DNA of 64,000 bases from Candidatus Omnitrophota bacterium (GCA_016783745.1 JADHVZ010000003.1:7112-71111), one strand, 5' to 3'; positions 4,818 through 60,677 are shown, counted from the first letter of the stretch. Notes: generated from the sequence alone by a model not told the origin. Translations and numbers: made by a program.

Positions 4818-6149
4818 ATGGACATAAAAGACATAGTCGGGAAAAGGTTTCCTCGATTTGGAGTAAATAAGCGGCAGGAGATAGCGCGACTTCTTTATGA
4901 AATATCTAAAAAAGAAGATGTTTCCTTCGAATGTATTATTGACGGTGTTTTGCGCGGACCAACAAAATTTGCCGATATTAAAGATTACCTTACCCGGCGG
5001 CGGTTCCCGCGTCGCACAGCTTCACCCGGGCGTTTTACCGCTTATTTGCCGGATCTTGATCTTGACCCGTCAAAAAAGGCAAGTATAAAAAAAAGAAAGA
5101 TAAATCCTAAAAACATTTACGCGGATAAAAAATCAGAAAAAAGCCCGCTTAGCATACGGCTCAAAAAAGCCTTCCCTCGTGCTGATTTTAAAACAATAAC
5201 CTCACTGAAGGGATATATTAAAGATAAGCGTTTTGATATAAAAGATCACAACCGCAGACGGGACAATTTCTTTGTAGTGCGCGAGGGATATGATTTTTTT
5301 AAGCACTGCCCCTGCACCTCCAAAGCTTTATCATGCGGCTATAATATATTCAACCTCGGGTTTGGTTGTGTTTTTGAGTGCGCATATTGCTACCTGCAGG
5401 AATACACGAATTCTCCGGGTATAATATTGCCTTCAAACATAGAAGATTTCTTTAAAGCCTTCAAGGGCACTGGGCGGAGCTTGAGAATAGGAACCGGAGA
5501 ATTTACAGATTCCCTGGCGCTGGATAGCATAACAGGATTTTCGACTATGATCATCGATTTTTTCAGAAGGCATCCTGACGCGGTATTTGAGTTTAAGACA
5601 AAGAGTGATAATATAAAAAACATTATCTCCGCGAAACCGGCCGATAATATCGTCATATCCTGGTCGCTCAATCCGCAATCCGTAATAGAAACCGAAGAGC
5701 ATCATACGGTATCTTTAGAGCGCCGTCTCGATGCCGCCATTAAATGCGTCAAGGCAGGGTTTACGGTCGGCTTCCATTTTGACCCGATCTTAGATTACGA
5801 GGGATGGGAGATCGATTACAAACGCGTGGTGGATCAGATTTTTAGCGCCCTGGATAGAAAGACGGTGAGATGGATCAGCCTGGGGACATTGCGTTTTGCG
5901 CCCGCGCTGAAGAAGACGATCGAAATGAGGTTTCCGCAAACTCGTATACTTGACGGCGAGCTCGCGCCGGATTTTGACAGAAAAATGCGTTACAGCGAAT
6001 CCATACGCATAGAGATATACAGGAAGATGCTGACGTGGATACGCGAAAGATCTGAGCGTGTCCCTGTCTATCTATGTATGGAAAATAAGAATGTCTGGAA
6101 AAGCGTTTCCGCTACTTCCCGTAAAGGACTTTCAACTGCTCTACTGTAG
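4818..6149 (+). CDS. Radical SAM DNA repair enzyme, spore photoproduct lyase (SplB) family, with an ~100 aa N-terminal extension
   Basis: Cx3Cx2C cluster GCVFECAYCY and SPL-family C-terminal region (WISLGTLRF...). Confidence 0.7.
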   Translation: MDIKDIVGKRFPRFGVNKRQEIARLLYEISKKEDVSFECIIDGVLRGPTKFADIKDYLTRRRFPRRTASPGRFTAYLPDLDLDPSKKASIKKRKINPKNIYADKKSEKSPLSIRLKKAFPRADFKTITSLKGYIKDKRFDIKDHNRRRDNFFVVREGYDFFKHCPCTSKALSCGYNIFNLGFGCVFECAYCYLQEYTNSPGIILPSNIEDFFKAFKGTGRSLRIGTGEFTDSLALDSITGFSTMIIDFFRRHPDAVFEFKTKSDNIKNIISAKPADNIVISWSLNPQSVIETEEHHTVSLERRLDAAIKCVKAGFTVGFHFDPILDYEGWEIDYKRVVDQIFSALDRKTVRWISLGTLRFAPALKKTIEMRFPQTRILDGELAPDFDRKMRYSESIRIEIYRKMLTWIRERSERVPVYLCMENKNVWKSVSATSRKGLSTALL

Positions 6150-10885: not shown

Positions 10886-12181
10886 GTGAAAAAGAGACCG
10901 ACCTTAGTCATCGCGGATAAAAAGGGAAAAATATACGATATCCCGCCTTTAGAGGCTTGCGGTATGAAAGGCGGGAATTTTTTCCGGCTTAGGAGCCGCG
11001 AACTCATCAAGTTGCCTTACGGCAGTGAGATCTTTATGTTGCCCGGCCGCGCTCCGGTCGGCTACAGCGCCGGGAGCGGAAAGTTTGTGACTCCGAGCGA
11101 CAATTACGCGGTTGCCGCGTTTGTGCCGCCCGGCCGCACCATAACTTACAACAGCGCATACCGTGAGGCCGGCTCGCCAAAAACTCTGCCGCTTTTTGCC
11201 TATGGCGCGGTTGCCTTTTATAAAGGGGATTTTTATGCCGCCGCCGTGCAGGTAGACCGCGAACTTAGGCAGGACCTGCGGCTCATGGATGCCGCTTTAG
11301 TCAGCAAAAATGTCAAACGCTACAGAAAATTATATCCTTCGAACAGGCTTATCAGGCATCTTGAAGGTTGCGCGCTGAAATATGGCTGCCCTGCCGCCAA
11401 AAATTTCTTTTTAGAAAGATATGAGGGCCCGCTGCCTACATCCCCTCACTGCAATGCGTATTGCATAGGCTGCATTTCTCATCAGCCGGCCGGAGGATGC
11501 AGTATCACGCAGCCAAGAATAAAGTTTGTTCCGTCCGCCGAAGAGATAGCGGAGACCGCGCTGCATCATATCGGAAAGGTGAAAGACCCTGTTGTGAGCT
11601 TCGGGCAGGGCTGTGAAGGAGAGCCGCTTTTGGTTGGCAAGATTATAGAAAAAGCCGTCACACTGATAAGGAAAAGCACAGGTAAAGGCATTATAAATAT
11701 AAATACAAACGCAAGCCGGCCTGATACAATTAAACGTTTATTTAAAGCCGGGATGGACAGCATGCGGGTAAGCCTTAATAGCGCGCAAGAGCCGCACTAT
11801 ATCAGATACTACAAGCCCAGAGGCTACAGATATAAAGATGTGATCAGATCTATCAGGGAGGCAAAGAAAGCGCGGGGCTTTGTATCGATCAATTATCTTA
11901 CAATGCCCGGATTTACTGACACAAAAGAGGAATTTGATTCCCTGAGAAAACTGATAAGAAACTGCAAAATAGATATGATCCAGTGGCGTAACTTAAATTT
12001 TGATCCGGCGCGATATTTCAAGGAGCTTAGAATACCTTTCTCTGATTCCAAGTTTCTTGGAATGAGACGGGTTATAAGTGCGATAAAAAAAGAATTTCCT
12101 CATGTCCTGACCGGCTATTTTAATCCTTCCCGGCAACGAATCCGAAGAAAAAGGGGACAGACACTTTTTGAGGCGTTGTAA
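10886..12181 (+). CDS. Radical SAM domain protein with an ~190 aa N-terminal domain of unknown function
   Basis: Cx3Cx2C (CNAYCIGCIS) and a glycine-rich SAM motif (GQGCEGEPLL). Confidence 0.6.
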   Translation: MKKRPTLVIADKKGKIYDIPPLEACGMKGGNFFRLRSRELIKLPYGSEIFMLPGRAPVGYSAGSGKFVTPSDNYAVAAFVPPGRTITYNSAYREAGSPKTLPLFAYGAVAFYKGDFYAAAVQVDRELRQDLRLMDAALVSKNVKRYRKLYPSNRLIRHLEGCALKYGCPAAKNFFLERYEGPLPTSPHCNAYCIGCISHQPAGGCSITQPRIKFVPSAEEIAETALHHIGKVKDPVVSFGQGCEGEPLLVGKIIEKAVTLIRKSTGKGIININTNASRPDTIKRLFKAGMDSMRVSLNSAQEPHYIRYYKPRGYRYKDVIRSIREAKKARGFVSINYLTMPGFTDTKEEFDSLRKLIRNCKIDMIQWRNLNFDPARYFKELRIPFSDSKFLGMRRVISAIKKEFPHVLTGYFNPSRQRIRRKRGQTLFEAL

Positions 12182-12242
12182 AGGGGACAGACACTTTTTT
12201 TGCGGCTACGTAGATAGCTTCAAAAAAAGTGTCTGTCCCCTT
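12180..12242 (+). terminator. Rho-independent terminator: an 18-bp perfect stem (aaaggggacagacacttttt) plus a T-run; the 5' arm is duplicated inside the upstream CDS
   Basis: Perfect inverted repeat at 12183-12200 and 12224-12241 with flanking T/A runs. A second copy of the arm lies at 12148-12169. Confidence 0.6.
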
Positions 12243-28999: not shown

Positions 29000-29093
29000 C
29001 TATATCGTTCGGGCTTCGGGGCAAAAAGTTGGACATTTCACATATGTTACATGTGTTCTCGAATCGTTTGTTATTTCTCGAGAGGCGCTTATA

Positions 29094-29197
29094 ATTCGTT
29101 TATCGTATATCGTTGATCGTTTATCGTTTTTGTTGATGAGCATCACAGGATTTGTACGATTGACGATAAACGATAGACGATTAACGATATGCGAACA
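29094..29197. repeat. Heptad-periodic long imperfect hairpin: five TATCGTT-type units, a 20-nt spacer, then five to six ACGATNN (reverse-complement) units
   Basis: Lies in the tRNA-Arg to tRNA-Leu spacer. The units have a 7-nt period on both arms. A further GCGGGC/GCCCGC hairpin sits at 29270-29290. Confidence 0.4.
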
Positions 29198-29333
29198 ACC
29201 AAGGAGCTGTAACGTTACGTTTCATTTTTTTGATTTTTTACGGAATTGCTTTATAGCGAGGAAGCGGGCAGGCCAGGAAAGCGGGCCAGCCCGCCGAAGT
29301 TTGTTTCGTAAGAATAGCAGGAGTAAAACGAAG

Positions 29334-29418: not shown

Positions 29419-29490
29419 GCTTATGCTATTTTTCTTGAAATATTACGCTTGTATGATAAAATAAACATCTATCTTTGATAAGTTAAAAGT

Positions 29491-29566: not shown

Positions 29567-29575
29567 GATATTAGT

Positions 29576-29670
29576 AGGTTTTAGGTGATAGGTAGTAGGT
29601 TATAGGTTTTTAGGAAAGAAATTTAAACCTACAACCTATAACCTACTACCTAACATATGATTTTTTAAAG
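29576..29670 (+). terminator. Hairpin built of TAGGTNN heptads (20-bp perfect stem) followed by a T6 run; terminator after tRNA-Lys
   Basis: taggtagtaggttataggtt (29589-29608) pairs perfectly with aacctataacctactaccta (29634-29653). The T-run is at 29661-29666. Confidence 0.5.
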
Positions 29671-29677
29671 CTATAAT

Positions 29678-29753
29678 GCGGGAGTAGCTCAGTTGGTAGA
29701 GCATCACGTTGCCAACGTGAATGTCGCCGGTTCGAGCCCGGTCTCCCGCTCCA
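29678..29753 (+). tRNA. tRNA-Gly (anticodon GCC)
   Basis: Acceptor GCGGGAG/CTCCCGC, anticodon loop TTGCCAA, T-loop TTCGAGC, CCA encoded. Confidence 0.85.
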
Positions 29754-29912: not shown

Positions 29913-30380
29913 ATGAAAATAATGGATTTTCTTTCCAGGAAGGCCGTGATTGATAACCTTAAGTCAACGAACAAAGAAGGGGTAATACGGGAACTCATTG
30001 ATTCCCTTTCTAAGGCGGGCGCTATCAAGGCTAAAAAAGATGAAATAGTTAAGATCCTGATGGCAAGAGAGGCCTTAGGCTCAACCGGTATAGGCCAGGG
30101 CGTAGGAATACCTCACGGTAAATCCTCTGCGATAAAGAGCCTCGTAGCGGCTTTTGGCTTATCCAGGGATGGAATAGACTTCGAATCTCTGGACGGCGAA
30201 CCCGCTCACATCTTTTTCCTGATATTGGCGCCGGAGGATTCGGCAGGCCCGCATCTTAAAGCTTTAGCGCGTATATCCCGCCTTTTAAGAGATAAACACA
30301 TCAGGGAATTATTAAAGAAGGCCCACAGTGAGAAAGATATAGTAAAAATCATAACCGAAGAAGACAGTAAAAAACATTAA
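29913..30380 (+). CDS. ptsN: PTS EIIA type-2 protein (nitrogen-regulatory EIIA-Ntr-like)
   Basis: EIIA-2 fold motifs (LGSTGIGQGVGIPHGK with the active-site His). Confidence 0.7.
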   Translation: MKIMDFLSRKAVIDNLKSTNKEGVIRELIDSLSKAGAIKAKKDEIVKILMAREALGSTGIGQGVGIPHGKSSAIKSLVAAFGLSRDGIDFESLDGEPAHIFFLILAPEDSAGPHLKALARISRLLRDKHIRELLKKAHSEKDIVKIITEEDSKKH

Positions 30381-30455
30381 TTAGTGCTGAGTCGGGAGTT
30401 GGGAGTCAAGAAACTTCCACACTCAAGACTCAGAACTCAGGACTCATAACTAAAT

Positions 30456-33817: not shown

Positions 33818-35628
<1,811 letters not shown>

Positions 35629-35667
35629 GTCTTAGGTCGCTAGGTTTAAAAAAAAGGAGGAAAGAGA

Positions 35668-40176: not shown

Positions 40177-40368
40177 CATTTGTTAGATATTAAAATAGCC
40201 AGATGTTAGAATAAAAAAAGCTAGATATGTGATATTGACAGAGCGTCTCTTGTAGGGTATACTTATATTGTCCTTATAAGAGGCGCTTTTATTTTGTAGA
40301 GTTATTTAACGATTTAAAAAAGTTTTTTTGCAAGTGCTATGTATGTCGCTTGATTTCGGAGGTATTTG

Positions 40369-50289: not shown

Positions 50290-50293
50290 AAGC

Positions 50294-50417
50294 CATAAGG
50301 GGACCATAAGGGGACCATAAGGGGACGTGTCACTTGTGGGACATACCTTTAGGTGTGTCCTCAAGTGACATGTCCCCTTACTATCCTAATGACCTGTCCC
50401 CTTCTCACACGTCCCCT
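50294..50417. repeat. Left direct-repeat element: 3x11-mer (cataaggggac), a 57-bp palindrome (50321-50377), and a GTCCCC micro-repeat tail
   Basis: The 62-bp block 50320-50381 is identical to 51469-51531. The tail at 50387-50417 matches 51570-51600. Confidence 0.6.
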
Positions 50418-50457
50418 AATGAATATGTTAGATATACAAAAGATAGTTTTTGCACTA

Positions 50458-50486
50458 TTGACAAATGCCACTTTGTCATATATACT
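50458..50486 (+). promoter_or_regulatory. Promoter: TTGACA, 17 nt spacer, TATACT
   Basis: Consensus hexamers with ideal spacing. Predicted transcription start ~50493, giving a ~225-nt leader before the PilZ gene. Confidence 0.45.
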
Positions 50487-50535
50487 TTAAATGGAAACAC
50501 AATATTAAGCGATAAGCAAACTGTTTTTTAACATA

Positions 50536-50640
50536 GTTTTTCGTCGAAAAAGGCAAACCATCTGAAAGGGTGGGGCTGCAAAGCCAAGTGCCTAACGCGC
50601 GAATCGCGCTAAGGTCGACTGGCCGCCGAAATGAAAAATT
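50536..50640 (+). ncRNA. Candidate class I c-di-GMP riboswitch (GEMM motif)
   Basis: aggcaaaccatctgaaagggtggggctgcaaagcc...gcctaa closely parallels the Vc2 aptamer core (GGCAAACCAUUCGAAAGAGUGGGACGCAAAGCC...GCCUAA). This includes the GAAA tetraloop hairpin (CCAUCU-GAAA-GGGUGG) and the CAAAGCC receptor region. Confidence 0.55.
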
Positions 50641-50655
50641 TTTTCATTTTTACAG

Positions 50656-50702
50656 CCCCGGATCTCAGATGGCAAAATGCCGTCGCAGATCCGGGGTTTT
50701 TT
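50656..50702 (+). terminator. Intrinsic terminator / expression platform: a 10-bp stem (ccccggatct / agatccgggg) plus T6
   Basis: Perfect GC-rich stem followed by tttttt. The RBS (gaaggag) and ATG of the PilZ gene lie ~15 nt downstream. Confidence 0.6.
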
Positions 50703-50720
50703 ATTTGAAGGAGCACAGCG

Positions 50721-51338
50721 ATGAACGGCAAAAAGAACAACGGTCGGAATAAAAAGATCAAGAAATGCAGAGTTATTGCCCTGCTAAAGAGGGATGAGGT
50801 GGAATTTCTTGATAAGCTGGCCATGGATTCTCTCTTTTCGACTGGCACAAAACTTTCAAGGGTTGAAATAATCAGCGCCCTTGTCAGTGTAGCGATGCTC
50901 TTAGAATTGTCAGCTAGCAATGTTAAGAGTAAAGAAGAGTTAGTTGATAGAGTGATGGATCTACTCAATCCTAATCCTGAGCGAAGACAGATTCCCCGCC
51001 TTAAGAAAAACCTGATGGTAAAATTCAGGAAAATAGAATCCCTACAGGGATATGAAAACGGCGCTACTATAGATGTAGGCATCGGAGGTTTTAAAGTGGA
51101 TGTCGCTTTTATGGGAAAGCCGCTAGCTGTTGATCAACCGATAGAGATCACGGTCAATGAACCACAAGACGAAAGCAAAACAGTAAAGGCGATAGGCCGT
51201 GTAGCCTGGATAAGGGAAAAGGGCGATGGCCATAGCCACGAAATAGGCATCATGCTTACATACATAAAAGCAAATGACAAAGACACCTTCCTTAAATATT
51301 TGACAGGCGATAGGGAAGCCAAAAGCGATGCACAGTAA
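50721..51338 (+). CDS. PilZ-domain protein (c-di-GMP receptor) with an N-terminal RHH-like/unknown domain
   Basis: RRQIPRLKKN (RxxxR) followed by DVGIGGFKV (D-x-S/G-x-x-G) and a beta-barrel-like C-terminus. Confidence 0.6.
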   Translation: MNGKKNNGRNKKIKKCRVIALLKRDEVEFLDKLAMDSLFSTGTKLSRVEIISALVSVAMLLELSASNVKSKEELVDRVMDLLNPNPERRQIPRLKKNLMVKFRKIESLQGYENGATIDVGIGGFKVDVAFMGKPLAVDQPIEITVNEPQDESKTVKAIGRVAWIREKGDGHSHEIGIMLTYIKANDKDTFLKYLTGDREAKSDAQ

Positions 51339-51425
51339 ATAAAGTTTTTTTTGCGGTAAGTTGACAACTGAATAGCCCAAAAGTGGGCACGCAGGCGAGG
51401 ATATAACGTCCTCTACCTCAGGCAT

Positions 51426-51459
51426 CGGCCCGGACTCACCATCCGGGCCGAATTTTTTT
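51426..51459 (+). terminator. Rho-independent terminator (cggcccgga / tccgggccg stem plus T7)
   Basis: 9-bp perfect stem, 7-nt loop, followed by ttttttt. Confidence 0.6.
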
Positions 51460-51468
51460 AAGTCACGC

Positions 51469-51600
51469 AGGGGACGTGTCACTTGTGGGACATACCTTTA
51501 GGTGTGTCCTCAAGTGACATGTCCCCTTACTACACCCCCTTTAAGGAGTGTCCCCTTTTGACACGTCCCCTAATGACACGTCCCCTTCTCACACGTCCCC
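51469..51600. repeat. Right direct-repeat element: the same 57-bp palindrome plus four GTCCCCT micro-repeats (contains a 38-bp insertion relative to the left copy)
   Basis: Identical 62-bp block to 50320-50381. gacacgtcccct-type units recur four times at ~13-bp spacing. Confidence 0.6.
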
Positions 51601-51676
51601 TCAGATCTAATATATTGACATAAATATTGACATAATATATAATATAAACTTAATTCGATAAACGGAGGGCAATAAT

Positions 51677-54988: not shown

Positions 54989-55876
54989 ATGGGCATTAAA
55001 ATTAATATAAATGGTAAGTATTATGACAAAAAAGACGCGAAGATCTCTGTCTTTGACCACGGCCTTCTTTACGGTGACGGTGTTTTTGAGGGTATCAGGT
55101 CATACAGCAGACTTGTGTTTAAACTGAAAGAGCATGTGGATAGGCTTTATGAGTCCGCGAAGTCGATCATGCTTGAAATACCCATGAGTAAGCAGCAGAT
55201 GGCGAAGGCCGTTATCTCAACTCTAAAGGCCAATAAGCTCAAGGATGCATATATCAGGCTTGTGGTCACAAGAGGAGAAGGTGACCTGGGGCTTGACCCG
55301 CGAAAATGCAAAGGAAACGCGACAGTTATTATCATAGCTGATAAGATAGCCCTTTATCCTGAACAGCATCCTGAACAGCTTTGCAAGAAGGGACTTGAGA
55401 TCATAACCGTACCCACGATCAGGAATCTCCCGGAGGCGCTTAACCCGCAAATAAAATCGCTTAATTACTTGAATAACATCCTGGCCAAAATAGAAGCTGT
55501 GAATTGCGGTTTCCAGGAAGCGATCATGCTGGATTCACTCGGTTATGTCGCCGAGTGTACAGGCGATAATATCTTTATCGTAAAACGCGGAGAGCTCTAT
55601 ACTCCACCGCAGTGTATGGGGACATTGAGAGGCATCACCCGGGATACTATACTGGATATCGCCAGAAAGAAACGCTTGGGAGCCCATGAGCATGTGCTCA
55701 CCCGCCATGAGGTATATATTTCCGATGAGGTGTTTTTGACCGGGACCGCAGCCGAGGTCATTCCCGTTGTAAAAGTCGACGGCCGTAAGATAGGGGACGG
55801 TAAGCCCGGCAAAACGACTCTCATGCTGATGAAGGAATATAAGAAACTGACGAAGAAAGAGGGGGTTAGGTATTAG
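54989..55876 (+). CDS. ilvE: Class IV aminotransferase (branched-chain amino acid aminotransferase type)
   Basis: FDHGLLYGDGVFEGIRSY and a PLP-fold type IV C-terminal region. ~295 aa. Confidence 0.7.
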   Translation: MGIKININGKYYDKKDAKISVFDHGLLYGDGVFEGIRSYSRLVFKLKEHVDRLYESAKSIMLEIPMSKQQMAKAVISTLKANKLKDAYIRLVVTRGEGDLGLDPRKCKGNATVIIIADKIALYPEQHPEQLCKKGLEIITVPTIRNLPEALNPQIKSLNYLNNILAKIEAVNCGFQEAIMLDSLGYVAECTGDNIFIVKRGELYTPPQCMGTLRGITRDTILDIARKKRLGAHEHVLTRHEVYISDEVFLTGTAAEVIPVVKVDGRKIGDGKPGKTTLMLMKEYKKLTKKEGVRY

Positions 55877-55898
55877 GTTTAAGGAATTTCTCCACACC

Positions 55899-55922
55899 CT
55901 GACACCTTGACACTTTGACACT
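55899..55922 (+). repeat. Three tandem 8-bp units (cTGACACc TTGACACT TTGACACT) upstream of the HAMP paralog gene
   Basis: Direct reading. The units are -35-hexamer-like (TTGACA) and lie ~20 nt upstream of the RBS. Confidence 0.4.
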
Positions 55923-55943
55923 TTATAACAAGGAGGTGGCTTT

Positions 55944-58116: not shown

Positions 58117-58118
58117 TA

Positions 58119-58230
58119 AAACGGTTTACGGTGAACGGTTCACGGTTTACGGTTAACAGAACAACCGTAGGATTTTTAAAACCGTTAACCGTACACCGAA
58201 AACCGATAACCGAAATATATATTCAGGAGG
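58119..58230. repeat. Heptad-periodic hairpin: five tandem ACGGTNN units, a short spacer, then six AACCGNN (reverse-complement) units, immediately upstream of clpC
   Basis: acggttt acggtga acggttc acggttt acggtta ... aaccgta(gg) ... aaccgtt aaccgta caccgaa aaccgat aaccgaa. Confidence 0.45.
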
Positions 58231-58238
58231 CATAATCA

Positions 58239-60677
58239 ATGGCGATGTTCAATAGATTTACAGAAAGGGCGAGAAAGGTTATTTTACTGGCTAAAGAGGA
58301 AGCCAAAAGATTTAACCATGACTATATCGGCACAGAACACGTACTACTGGGCCTGGTCAGAGAAGGTGAAGGGGTGGCGGCTGCCGTACTTGAAAGCCTG
58401 GGGCTAAGTTCTGATAATGTACGCATGGAGATCGAAAAGCTTGTGAAGGCCGGACCCAGTACTCTTATTTCCGGCGATTTACCGTTTACGCCAAAGGCTA
58501 AAAAAGTCATGGAGCTTTCTATGGATGAGGCAGTTTCTCTGGGCCATAATTATATCGGTACGGAACACCTGCTCTTAGGGCTTTTGCGTGAAGGAGAAGG
58601 TGTTGCCGCGCAGGTTTTGATAGCCTTAGGATTGGATATGAGTAAGGCCAGGACTGAGGTCATGAGGCTTCTGGGCTCCACTACTCCAGGCTTTGGAGCA
58701 CAGCAAAAATCTCAGGCAGCCCGGGGCCAGAAAAAGGCGCCGGCCCTTCAGGCTTTCGCCCGTGACCTGACTGAACTAGCGAAGCAGAATAAGCTGGATC
58801 CCGTAATAGGGCGCAGTAATGAGATAGAGAGAGTCATTCAGATATTGAGCAGGCGTACCAAGAATAATCCTGTTTTACTTGGCGAGGCCGGAGTCGGCAA
58901 GACCGCCATAGTTGAAGGACTTGCGCAGAAGATAATCAATGGTGACATACCGGAGACACTTAAGGGCAAACGGATCCTCATATTGGATCTTGCGCTTATG
59001 GTAGCCGGCACCAAGTATAGGGGGCAATTTGAAGAGAGAATAAAGGCCGTTATGGAGGAGATAAAGCGCTCCGACGAACTTATTATTTTCATAGATGAAC
59101 TTCATACACTTGTCGGCGCGGGCGCGGCAGAAGGCGCTATAGACGCGTCGAACATCTTAAAACCTTCGCTTTCCAGGGGGGAGATACAATGTATCGGCGC
59201 GACAACACTTGATGAGTATCGAAAACATATAGAGAAGGACGCCGCGTTAGAGAGAAGATTTCAGACTATCATGGTGGATCCGCCGACAGTGGAGGAGACA
59301 ATAGAGATACTCAAGGGTTTAAGGGATAAATATGAAGCGCACCATAGGGTGAAATTCACAGATGAGGCGGTTGAAGCCGCGGCCAGGTTATCGGATAGAT
59401 ATATCAGCGGAAGGTTTCTTCCGGATAAAGCAATAGACGTGATAGACGAAGCCGGTTCGCGCGCAAGGCTTGCCACTATGACCGTCCCTCCGGATGTGAA
59501 AAAACTGGAAGAGGAAATAGACAATTTTAAAAAAGAAAAAGACGCGGCTGTAGAGGCGCAGAATTTTGAAAAAGCGGCCGAATACAGAGACATGGAGAGA
59601 AAGTCAAGGGACACGCTTGTTGTTACCAAGAAAGAGTGGAGCCAGAAGAAGGGCACAGATGAACCCGAAGTAGGCGTCGAGGACATCGAAGTCATAGTGT
59701 CGAAATGGACAGGCATACCTCTTTCGAGATTGGAGGAAAAAGAAGGGGAAAAATTCCTTAAGATGGAAAATGGCCTTAAAAAGAAGGTAGTGGGCCAGAA
59801 TGAGGCGATCTCAGCTATCGCGCGCGCTGTCAGACGCTCGAGAGCGGGCATCAAAGACCCTAACAGACCCATAGGCTCATTCGTATTCCTGGGGCCGACA
59901 GGAGTCGGTAAGACACTTCTCGGCAGGGCCCTTGCGGAATACATGTTTGGTGATGAGAACGCCATAATCCAGATAGACATGTCAGAGTACATGGAGAAGT
60001 TTAACATCTCAAGGCTGGTCGGCGCGCCTCCGGGGTATGTGGGATACGAAGAAGGAGGCCAGCTTACTGAAAGGGTAAGGAGAAAACCTTATTCTGTCGT
60101 GCTTCTGGATGAGATTGAAAAAGCGCATCCCGACGTGTTCAATATTTTACTGCAGGTCATGGAGGAAGGGCGCATGACAGACTCTTTCGGCAGGCGCGTT
60201 GATTTCAAGAATACGATCATCATCATGACCTCGAATATCGGCGCGGAGATGCTGAGAAAACAGGGGGCTATAGGTTTCAAGACGCAAAATCAGGAACAAG
60301 AAAATTACAAGACTATGAAGTCAAGGCTGATGGATGAGGTAAAGAAGACATTTAAGCCGGAATTCCTTAACAGGGTCGACGATATAATAGTCTTCCACCA
60401 GTTGACAAGGGAAGACCTCAGCGAAATAGTAGACATAGAGATAATGGATGTAAAGGAGCGCCTTGAAAATCAGAATATTAAGATAACACTCGATAAAGAC
60501 GCGAGGGAATTTTTGGTGGAAAAAGGCTTTGACCCTGTTTTTGGAGCGAGGCCGCTTAAGAGGACCATTCAGAGGTACATCGAAGACCCTCTGGCGGAAG
60601 AGATAATCTCCGGAAAATTTAAATCCGGTTCCATGGTCAAGGTCACAAAGAAGGGGAATGAACTTGCTTTTAAATAA
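58239..60677 (+). CDS. clpC: ATP-dependent Clp protease ATP-binding subunit ClpC (double Clp_N, two AAA+ modules, UVR)
   Basis: Two Clp_N repeats, Walker A GEAGVGKT and GPTGVGKT, 812 aa. Confidence 0.9.

Follow-up and report, generated by a model that had tools for sequence, protein, structure and literature searches.

Palindromic arrays of tandem heptanucleotides form long, locus-specific hairpins in intergenic spacers of Candidatus Omnitrophota

Introduction

Cyanobacteria and a few other bacteria have been known for decades to carry tandem repeats of heptamers. Here we describe five long hairpins in a 64-kb stretch of a metagenome contig from Candidatus Omnitrophota (GCA_016783745.1 JADHVZ010000003.1:7112-71111, hereafter called the window), all of which share an architecture wherein three to six tandem units of 7-8 nucleotides (nt) are followed by a loop and then by a similar number of reverse-complement units. 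An earlier note, made from the window sequence, had pointed to four of these sites and suggested for them a distinctive terminator architecture, a repeat-expansion mechanism, or recognition by a protein that reads heptads. Our analysis argues that the hairpins resemble rapidly changing by-products of errors in DNA copying and not a new kind of terminator.

The closest known kind of element is the STRR (short tandemly repeated repetitive) sequence of cyanobacteria. These 7-bp intergenic repeats form hairpins between hupS and hupL, where they have been proposed to act in termination, in translational coupling or in the stability of transcripts (PMC2670836). The Omnitrophota hairpins resemble STRRs in their 7-bp tandem units, in their intergenic location, and in the ability of their arrays to pair into hairpins. 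In 150 kb of the Nostoc plasmid pCC7120alpha, we likewise found one inverted pair of heptamer arrays, with units CAATTCG and AATTGCG (comparison locus L166, 45681-45856; loci other than the window carry L numbers throughout). In contrast, heterocystous cyanobacteria are described as dispersing a few heptamer families (such as STRR1-3) genome-wide, whereas nearly every Omnitrophota locus has its own unit, short loops of 6-46 nt separate the two arms, and palindromic arrays make up about half of those that have four copies or more.

The closest experimentally characterized analogue that we found is the heptamer-repeat hairpin in the 5' untranslated region of Haemophilus influenzae hmw1A, which is cleaved by RNase III (PMC12721329). 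There, the repeat (ATCTTTC)n, whose copy number changes in 7-nt steps, forms an arm of a long untranslated-region hairpin by a gene start, as do the arrays upstream of clpC and yvcK in the window (sites 4 and 5). However, the left arm alone of the hmw1A hairpin is a repeat and the right arm is a G-rich non-repeat, whereas both arms of the Omnitrophota hairpins are repeats. Furthermore, hmw1A is a phase-variable adhesin gene whose hairpin was shown by experiment to be cleaved, whereas the Omnitrophota hairpins, described here from their sequence, neighbor housekeeping genes (clpC, yvcK and tRNA genes). The TAACTGA repeats of marine Beggiatoaceae (PMC4679880) similarly occur in 2-6 copies, are mostly intergenic and often end at a start codon, and may be compared with arrays described below, namely the 3' arm of site 5 (30421-30451), the one-armed array of sister genome L004, and the one-armed array at 35626-35648. 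Unlike the many, often inverted units of Omnitrophota, a single heptamer is used genome-wide in Beggiatoaceae, almost always as direct repeats and with one inverted case.

Two processes and two classes of palindrome also bear on these hairpins. PMC4679880, citing Mrazek et al. 2007, presents heptanucleotides as the commonest long simple-sequence repeats in prokaryotes and polymerase slippage as their proposed source, and the same paper reviews the binding of CspB to heptamer direct repeats. Replication template switching can create and maintain hairpins (PMC8794818), and this process, together with quasipalindrome correction, resembles what we describe in its de novo origin of hairpins, in the production of complementary arms by one event, and in loop inversion (L029 and L119, below). 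That work concerns ordinary stems of structured RNAs, whereas the Omnitrophota arms are tandem repeats for which we infer the switch events. Like the hairpins described here, REP/BIME elements, other intergenic palindromic repeats and Rho-independent terminators are imperfect palindromes that lie in co-directional operon spacers or past gene ends. REP elements differ in being sequence families moved by a dedicated transposase, whereas the Omnitrophota hairpins share no sequence. Terminators differ in combining a short GC-rich stem with a U-tract, a feature that 35 of the 36 hairpins in our survey lack. A literature search for such repeats in Omnitrophota returned no relevant paper. What is new is the phylum in which the repeats occur, how often they take the palindromic form, and a set of genome pairs that catch their dynamics.

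Results

Heptanucleotide periodicity and inverted pairing in the window

To quantify periodicity, we defined a chain as a 5-mer that recurs at least three times at a spacing of 6-9 nt and compared the window with shuffled sequences. Chains of at least three copies number 16 versus 1.0 in shuffles, and chains of at least four copies number 7 versus 0.005, and thus the periodicity described in the earlier note stands up to shuffled controls. An exact period of 7 accounts for 10 window chains, while other periods contribute 0-5 and periods 4-6, 9, 10, 12 and 13 contribute none. An inverted partner within 130 nt is significant for 6 of the 12 short-period arrays, and none was seen in 200 shuffles. 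The five resulting hairpins fold as RNA with energies of -28 to -46 kcal/mol (z -5.4 to -8.0), which 0 of 200 dinucleotide shuffles match. Tandem Repeats Finder (TRF) reports period 7 in both arms of sites 2-5 and a period of 7 or 8 at site 1, and an inverted-repeat tool places sites 2, 4 and 3 among the longest inverted repeats of the window.

The four places and units listed in the earlier note are borne out by direct reading, by TRF, by the inverted-repeat tool and by the folds, and a further site with the same architecture, site 5 (30386-30451), had been missed. Several details of that description need revision. Loops measure 11-38 nt, and not 13-25 nt as had been given; the two arms hold n and n ± 1-2 units instead of equal numbers, although their copy numbers do correlate (see below); and the 7-nt unit describes sites 2-5 but not site 1, where the period is 7-8. 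The statement that each locus has its own unit is largely right, except that TAGGTNN occurs at three window loci.

Five hairpins between protein-coding and tRNA genes

All arrays are given on the + strand. At site 1, GGTCACA/GACACA units in the 5' arm (1483-1521, GGGTCACA AGACACA GGACACA AGGTCACA AGACCAAGG, period 7-8) pair with GTGACC units in the 3' arm (1533-1565, GGTGACCT GGTGACGT GTGACCTT GTGACCC, period 8). An A-run (1473-1477) precedes the 5' arm and a T-run (1570-1575) lies 4 nt beyond the 3' arm, and the segment 1473-1575 folds at -45.5 kcal/mol (z -7.1). Judged by its sequence, this series of A-run, stem and T-run looks like a bidirectional terminator. A promoter-like sequence (1605-1633) lies downstream, and a response-regulator gene comes after the site. 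A CtsR operator was considered for the GGTCA-like heptads and rejected, given that CtsR operators have a spacing of 10 nt, whereas the spacing here is 7-8 nt and the site is far from ctsR.

Sites 2 and 3 belong to a tRNA gene cluster with the order Arg, site 2, Leu, Lys, site 3, Gly. Site 2 occupies the 334-nt spacer between tRNA-Arg and tRNA-Leu and is built from ATCGTNN units (29095-29137, TTCGTTT ATCGTAT ATCGTTG ATCGTTT ATCGTTT TTGTTGATG) and ACGATNN units (29156-29202, ACGATTG ACGATAA ACGATAG ACGATTA ACGATAT GCGAACAACC). Its 3' arm has period 7 and also, by TRF, period 14 with 90% matches, and is not followed by a T-run. Folding gives -46.0 kcal/mol (z -8.0) for the + strand and -30.5 kcal/mol for the - strand, and this advantage of about 15 kcal/mol indicates that the structure depends on G.U pairs formed in the sense strand of the tRNA genes. 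Two promoter-like pairs lie in the same cluster, TTGTTA-16-TATAAT (29068-29095) and TTGAAA-16-TAAAAT with an upstream TG (29435-29462). The former ends exactly at the start of the site 2 hairpin, which would form the 5' end of a tRNA-Leu precursor if this promoter is real.

Site 3 begins 6 nt past tRNA-Lys and pairs TAGGTNN units (29572-29614, TAGGTTT TAGGTGA TAGGTAG TAGGTTA TAGGTTT TTAGG) with NNACCTA units (29626-29655, AACCTAC AACCTAT AACCTAC TACCTAA CA), folding at -36.7 kcal/mol (z -6.5). A run of six T residues (29661-29666) lies 5 nt beyond its 3' arm, and tRNA-Gly starts at 29678. The T-runs that the earlier note had seen after sites 1 and 3 are thus both present.

Sites 4 and 5 occupy spacers between co-directional protein-coding genes. 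Site 4 is the mcsB-clpC spacer, wherein ACGGTNN units (58119-58157, AAACGGTTT ACGGTGA ACGGTTC ACGGTTT ACGGTTA AC) pair with AACCGNN units (58178-58215, AAAACCGTT AACCGTAC ACCGAAA ACCGATA ACCGAAA) to give a stem with a single mismatch every 7 nt and a fold of -39.7 kcal/mol (z -6.7). The hairpin starts about 3-5 nt past the mcsB stop codon (58116) and ends about 10 nt upstream of the clpC ribosome-binding site AGGAGG (clpC ATG at 58239). Site 5, which TRF reports as a fifth array pair at 30389-30451, combines GAGTYNN units (30386-30409, GCTGAGTC GGGAGTT GGGAGTC AA) with RACTCNN units (30421-30451, ACTCAAG ACTCAGA ACTCAGG ACTCATA AC) and fills its spacer, lying 5 nt past the stop codon of a PTS EIIA gene (which ends at 30380) and 4 nt before the ATG of a CofD/YvcK-like gene (30456). 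Here, 5-bp helices alternate with purine-purine 2x2 mismatches, and the fold energy is -28.2 kcal/mol (z -5.4).

Some arrays in the window remain single. Just upstream of the metK ribosome-binding site is an array of the site 3 unit TAGGTNN (35626-35648, TAGGTCT TAGGTCGC TAGGTTT) that lacks a complementary arm (inverted scores 8/8). Two adjacent arrays, TTAGGTA TTAGGTT TAAGG (55866-55886) and TGACACCT TGACACTT TGACACTT (55894-55924), are also unpaired; the region 55855-55930 had been a candidate for a sixth, G.U-rich hairpin, but its fold is no better than that of shuffles (z -0.1) and the arrays are two unrelated neighbors.

A class of heptad hairpins across Omnitrophota

The genomes nearest to the window are Candidatus Omnitrophota MAGs. 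We next asked how widely this architecture occurs, using 160 related loci (2.05 Mb after duplicate removal), all centered on a tRNA cluster. A screen with RNALfold for clean long hairpins missed the known sites 2 and 4 and was replaced by a procedure in which each array seeds a Smith-Waterman search for an inverted partner, with the threshold set at the 99.5th percentile of a shuffled-flank null. TRF arrays of period 7 number 131, versus 35, 25 and 19 for periods 8, 9 and 6, and the k-mer chain method gives 65 arrays of period 7 and at most 12 of any other. The proportion with a significant inverted partner is 20/105 at three copies, 18/33 at four and 5/6 at five. In all, the scan returns 36 heptad hairpins from many Omnitrophota lineages, including GC-rich ones, and nearly all are devoid of a terminator T-run; one further heptad hairpin lies outside the phylum, in Sporomusa ovata.

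These hairpins are intergenic in 34 of 36 cases, whereas intergenic sequence makes up 11% of the total (p about 1e-30), and 27 of the 36 lie between co-directional features. Their spread is patchy, with period-7 arrays absent from 34 of 59 longer Omnitrophota loci. Adjacency to tRNA genes is seen for 11 of 34 hairpins versus 19% (p 0.04), but we do not claim enrichment because the cases are not independent and every locus is centered on a tRNA cluster. Units are diverse, with 100 distinct ones among 126 arrays. A unit nevertheless recurs at several loci of one genome in some cases (TAGGTNN three times in the window, GTCGTT three times in L059, TAGCGT twice in L019), and the odds ratio for the sharing of units within a genome is 2 (p 0.018), with the genome of the window represented by only 64 kb.

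No Rfam family accounts for the hairpins. At the gathering score, Rfam 15 finds only tRNAs and a c-di-GMP-I riboswitch in the window, and no hairpin family. Its E-value mode adds only sub-threshold look-alikes of microRNA precursors, such as let-7 at 37.5 bits versus a gathering score of 53.5. This let-7 precursor match covers the site 3 hairpin (29583-29658) on both strands, and it is likely an annotation false positive because the likeness of TGATAGGTAGTAGGTTATAGGTT to mature let-7 is a matter of chance. Restriction-site cores, integron attC sites and telomere-like repeats were also considered as identities for the arrays and were set aside for want of a consistent motif or context.

Rapid turnover between close relatives

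Comparison of orthologous spacers reveals that the hairpins change very quickly. The sister genome L004 (89% YvcK identity) differs from the window at sites 2, 3 and 5. At site 5 it has the 3'-arm array alone (GACTCCG GACTCAG GACTCGT), which abuts its ATG; at site 3 its spacer is 41 nt long and contains just one TAGGT...AACCT; and at site 2 it has a perfect 26-bp hairpin that is not built of heptads. Some more distant relatives have a site 5 spacer that lacks heptads, and L005 and L085 carry GGTT/AACC-type heptad arrays in the Lys-Gly spacer.

L142, L143 and L141 are 95-98% identical in nucleotide sequence, and yet each has its own heptad hairpin in a spacer bounded by the same stop codon and tRNA. 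At a second spacer, L142 and L143 again have two different heptad hairpins. The 5' arms of L143 and L142 at a third locus are distinguished by an indel of exactly 7 nt, and the 3' arm of L142 also carries a 20-nt palindromic insertion relative to L143. In another pair of genomes, the 47-nt segment L029 2485-2531, comprising the loop and inner arms, matches L119 1551-1597 exactly but in inverted orientation, and the flanks are 96-97% identical; this flipped block indicates exchange between arms. Comparison of the L040 and L117 sequences shows a birth, in that heptad arms (ACTTAGA x3) appear to have grown from an ordinary hairpin stem between convergent genes.

Presence and absence of a hairpin also distinguish L106 from L034, and S. 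ovata from two congeners. The S. ovata hairpin (L075, about 5550-5690, unit CGCAGAG) lies in a 143-nt insertion just past a canonical terminator, and two congeners that are 93-94% identical, Sporomusa sp. KB1 and S. silvacetica, lack this insertion.

Within the host population, 7 independent assemblies give the same sequence for site 4, and 3 do so for site 5. This agreement leads us to reject an assembly artefact, and it likewise gives no support to hypermutability on short timescales. No variation in copy number (phase variation) was seen within populations at site 4 (7 assemblies) or site 5 (3 assemblies), and the only 7-nt unit indel is that between the related genomes L142 and L143. A separate observation concerns ERZ24794672 NODE_239 (L168, about 2551-2827, equivalent to window 58117-58238), in which a 100-N scaffold gap with duplicated flanks lies inside site 4.

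Internal anatomy of stems and arms

Stem mismatches recur at the unit spacing, with 41 observed at lag 7 versus 19.5 expected and 25 at lag 14 versus 13.7. From this periodicity it follows that each arm amplifies its own unit, mismatch included. TRF finds a 14-nt super-repeat in three window arms, which points to stepwise duplication. Some hairpins are nearly perfect, site 3 among them (26/28 Watson-Crick pairs), and such pairing even at variable linker positions indicates that their arms are inverted copies of each other. Copy numbers of the two arms covary across 35 hairpins (Spearman 0.45, p 0.007), with a mean difference of 0.89 versus 1.35 when permuted. Variation within units is concentrated in about two of the seven columns (0.85 versus 0.74 expected, p < 0.0005).

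If the hairpins had been shaped as RNA, the sense strand might be expected to bear the imprint, but neither energy asymmetry nor G.U pairs versus A.C mismatches gives such a signal overall, site 2 being an exception. In co-directional contexts the sense strand is the more stable in 13 cases and the antisense strand in 14 (Wilcoxon p 0.46), the sense strand has 22 G.U pairs whereas the antisense strand has 15 (p 0.32), and 93 of 130 mismatches are not of the wobble type.

Other repeats and features of the region

Several further repeats were encountered in the window. A segment of about 1.1 kb (50293-51601), with a c-di-GMP-I riboswitch (50542-50630) followed by a PilZ-domain gene (50721-51338), is bracketed by direct copies of a hairpin of about 55-60 nt (50318-50380 and 51469-51527). 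The same segment is bracketed by arrays with a GTCCCC/GGGGAC...GACAC motif, namely CCATAAGGGGA x3 (50293-50326) and a 15-nt unit x3.5 (51550-51601). At 12151-12242, three copies of AAGGGGACAGACACTTTTT, two direct and one inverted, extend across the stop codon of a radical-SAM gene (which ends at 12181) and form a 28-bp near-perfect hairpin; they have the GGGGAC...GACAC motif in common with the repeats at 50.3-51.6 kb. Downstream of the fructose-bisphosphate aldolase gene is a 22-nt tandem repeat (40181-40226, TGTTAGATATAAAAAAAGCCAGA x2) that has a counterpart at the same place in L004 and is followed by a conserved GC-rich, terminator-like hairpin; comparison of this spacer across loci found synteny only in the nearest relatives. 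At the start of the window, an alanine dehydrogenase/PNT-like gene (21-991) appears split into two overlapping frames (N-terminal domain 21-704, C-terminal domain 617-991), which could reflect a frameshift, a pseudogene or a sequencing error.

Two additional observations come from the related loci. An exact 20-nt palindrome, CCTGCCTGCCGGCAGGCAGG, of the form (CCTG)2CC/GG(CAGG)2, occurs at L142 14656-14675, L010 16322-16341, L011 230-249 and L087 13480-13499, with partial copies in L033 and L042. It is usually the apex of a longer hairpin, represents an insertion in L142 when compared with L143, does not occur in the window, and could be a tiny mobile or functionally conserved palindrome. In L004 (3253-3430), the last 20 nt or so of tRNA-Leu (aagtccctccgcccgcacca) are repeated about 170 nt downstream, in the spacer between tRNA-Leu and tRNA-Lys, with GC-rich sequence between the copies. 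This layout resembles the scar of an element integrated in a tRNA 3' end.

Discussion

We favor, with moderate confidence, the explanation that the hairpins are palindromic heptanucleotide microsatellites that have arisen locally and are not copies of a shared element. According to this model, a unit of about 7 nt would be amplified in tandem before a short loop and its reverse complement after it, yielding an imperfect hairpin of 25-40 bp in a non-coding spacer. Slipped-strand mispairing at replication, which may favor 7-nt units in prokaryotes, would add or remove units, while exchange between arms, either by fold-back template switching or by recombination of inverted arms, would copy, correct or flip arm sequence and thereby keep the arms complementary and similar in length. 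Such arrays may persist where a stem-loop is tolerated or mildly useful, as in transcribed spacers between co-directional genes or between tRNA genes. Repeat expansion, one of the three ideas in the earlier note, is the one that finds support, as it fits the dominance of period 7, the one-armed arrays that exist alongside hairpins, the single arm of the sister genome at site 5, the exact 7-nt indel between near-identical genomes, and the heptad arms that appear to have arisen from an ordinary stem.

Several observations do not sit easily with this model. Sites 4 and 5 are stable in the host population, and the near-complete replacement of units at 95-98% identity outpaces simple concerted evolution at a neutral rate. 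Hairpins are kept at the same spacers despite this turnover, which hints at selection for structure or at another driver. The concentration of variation in a few columns goes beyond plain slippage and random decay and is partly unexplained, although duplication of 14-nt double units accounts for part of it. In addition, the density of period-7 arrays (70 per Mb versus 21 per Mb in a Bacillota outgroup of only 189 kb) suggests enrichment at the level of the phylum, but this outgroup is too small for a strong claim.

The persistence of hairpins at orthologous spacers while their sequence turns over is also what would be expected if they were selected RNA elements of polycistronic and multi-tRNA transcripts, such as sites for the double-strand-specific RNase III, 3'-end stabilizers or devices for translational coupling, with heptads being only a route to a long stem. 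In the coupling version, a terminating ribosome would open the base of the stem and free the next start region, and the placement of many hairpins suits this idea: spacers are filled from stop to start at site 5 (5 nt and 4 nt) and at L042 1499 (6 and 4 nt), site 4 begins directly after a stop codon, and similar filling is seen at L059 6098, L103 and L143 14426. Furthermore, a tRNA-tRNA spacer is wholly filled by a hairpin at L019 1621 and L142 8135, the sense strand is 7-16 kcal/mol more stable at site 2 and at several tRNA-adjacent hairpins, and the middle unit of site 5 has a compensatory pair (GAGTT with AACTC). The hmw1A hairpin (PMC12721329) and the hupS-hupL repeats (PMC2670836) offer precedents. 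However, there is neither an overall sense-strand advantage nor an excess of G.U pairs, most mismatches are not wobble-type, and the closest relatives have one arm or no hairpin at the same spacers, so we regard selection on RNA as a rather unlikely general cause. A more specific RNA function, that of a distinctive class of Rho-independent terminators, seems distinctly improbable. The A-run, stem, T-run and downstream promoter-like site of site 1, the T6 run of site 3, and hairpins between convergent genes (L040, L050 20045 and L075) would suit it, and site 1 could, from its position, mark where a transcription unit ends. Yet at least four T residues within 12 nt of the 3' arm are found at 1 of the 36 hairpins, a terminator scan calls none of the hairpins, most hairpins separate co-directional features, and sites 4 and 5 lie within apparent operons (mcsB-clpC and EIIA-yvcK), between a stop codon and the next start 4-33 nt away. 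As a general role, the terminator architecture proposed in the earlier note is therefore not supported.

Insertion of miniature mobile palindromic elements (MITE/REP-like) into spacers would account for the S. ovata hairpin, whose insertion is flanked by a TTTAAT direct repeat and is missing from two close congeners, for the different inserts between identical flanks in three close relatives, and for the recurrence of CCTGCCTGCCGGCAGGCAGG in four distant Omnitrophota genomes. We nonetheless consider it very unlikely as an explanation of the class, since each window hairpin has its own unit with no whole hairpin recurring, the Omnitrophota cases have no terminal inverted repeats or target duplications, and one-armed or single-unit states and growth from a pre-existing stem (L040 versus L117) point to an origin in situ. 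Still harder to credit is the remaining proposal of the earlier note, that the arrays are ligands of a protein reading 7-nt registers, whether on single-stranded RNA or DNA (a cold-shock-like protein with one OB fold per heptamer) or on duplex DNA. The partition of units into about five conserved and two variable positions and the weak sharing of units within genomes are hints in this direction, as is the known binding of CspB to heptamer direct repeats (PMC4679880). But the diversity of units means that there is no common motif for one protein, a 7-bp register does not keep in phase with the DNA helix, duplication of 14-nt double units explains part of the column concentration, and no candidate heptad-reading protein came up.

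Local origin as microsatellites leaves room for secondary functions. An RNA role is plausible at some sites and agrees with the stop-to-start placement of several hairpins and with the stability of site 2 on the sense strand; a hairpin in the transcript could protect 3' ends, serve as a site where double-stranded RNA is processed, or mask the start region downstream of it, and at sites 1 and 3, which have U-runs, it could terminate transcription. A more adventurous and, in our estimation, improbable idea is that an active process, and not passive slippage, couples the arms, for example a dedicated hairpin-specific recombinase, nuclease or polymerase that seeds and remodels arrays as tunable, contingency-like controls. 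Whole-hairpin replacement at 95-98% identity, loop flips and covariation of the arms are compatible with such a process, as are the weak preference of each genome for certain heptamers and the pattern of about five fixed and two free positions. If this were true, the arrays would tune operon polarity and the processing of tRNA precursors, and the same process might explain cyanobacterial STRRs and the heptamer repeats of Beggiatoa.

These findings have practical consequences, in that heptad hairpins should not by default be labeled terminators, can cause assemblies to break or to be joined wrongly, and mimic microRNA-precursor models in searches for RNA families. More broadly, palindromic heptamer repeats are now evident in Omnitrophota, an uncultured phylum unrelated to cyanobacteria. 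Near-identical genome pairs in this phylum catch the changes themselves, including an indel of one unit, an inverted loop, the replacement of whole hairpins, and the birth of heptad arms from an ordinary stem, and such pairs make the origin of heptamer repeats testable by population metagenomics.

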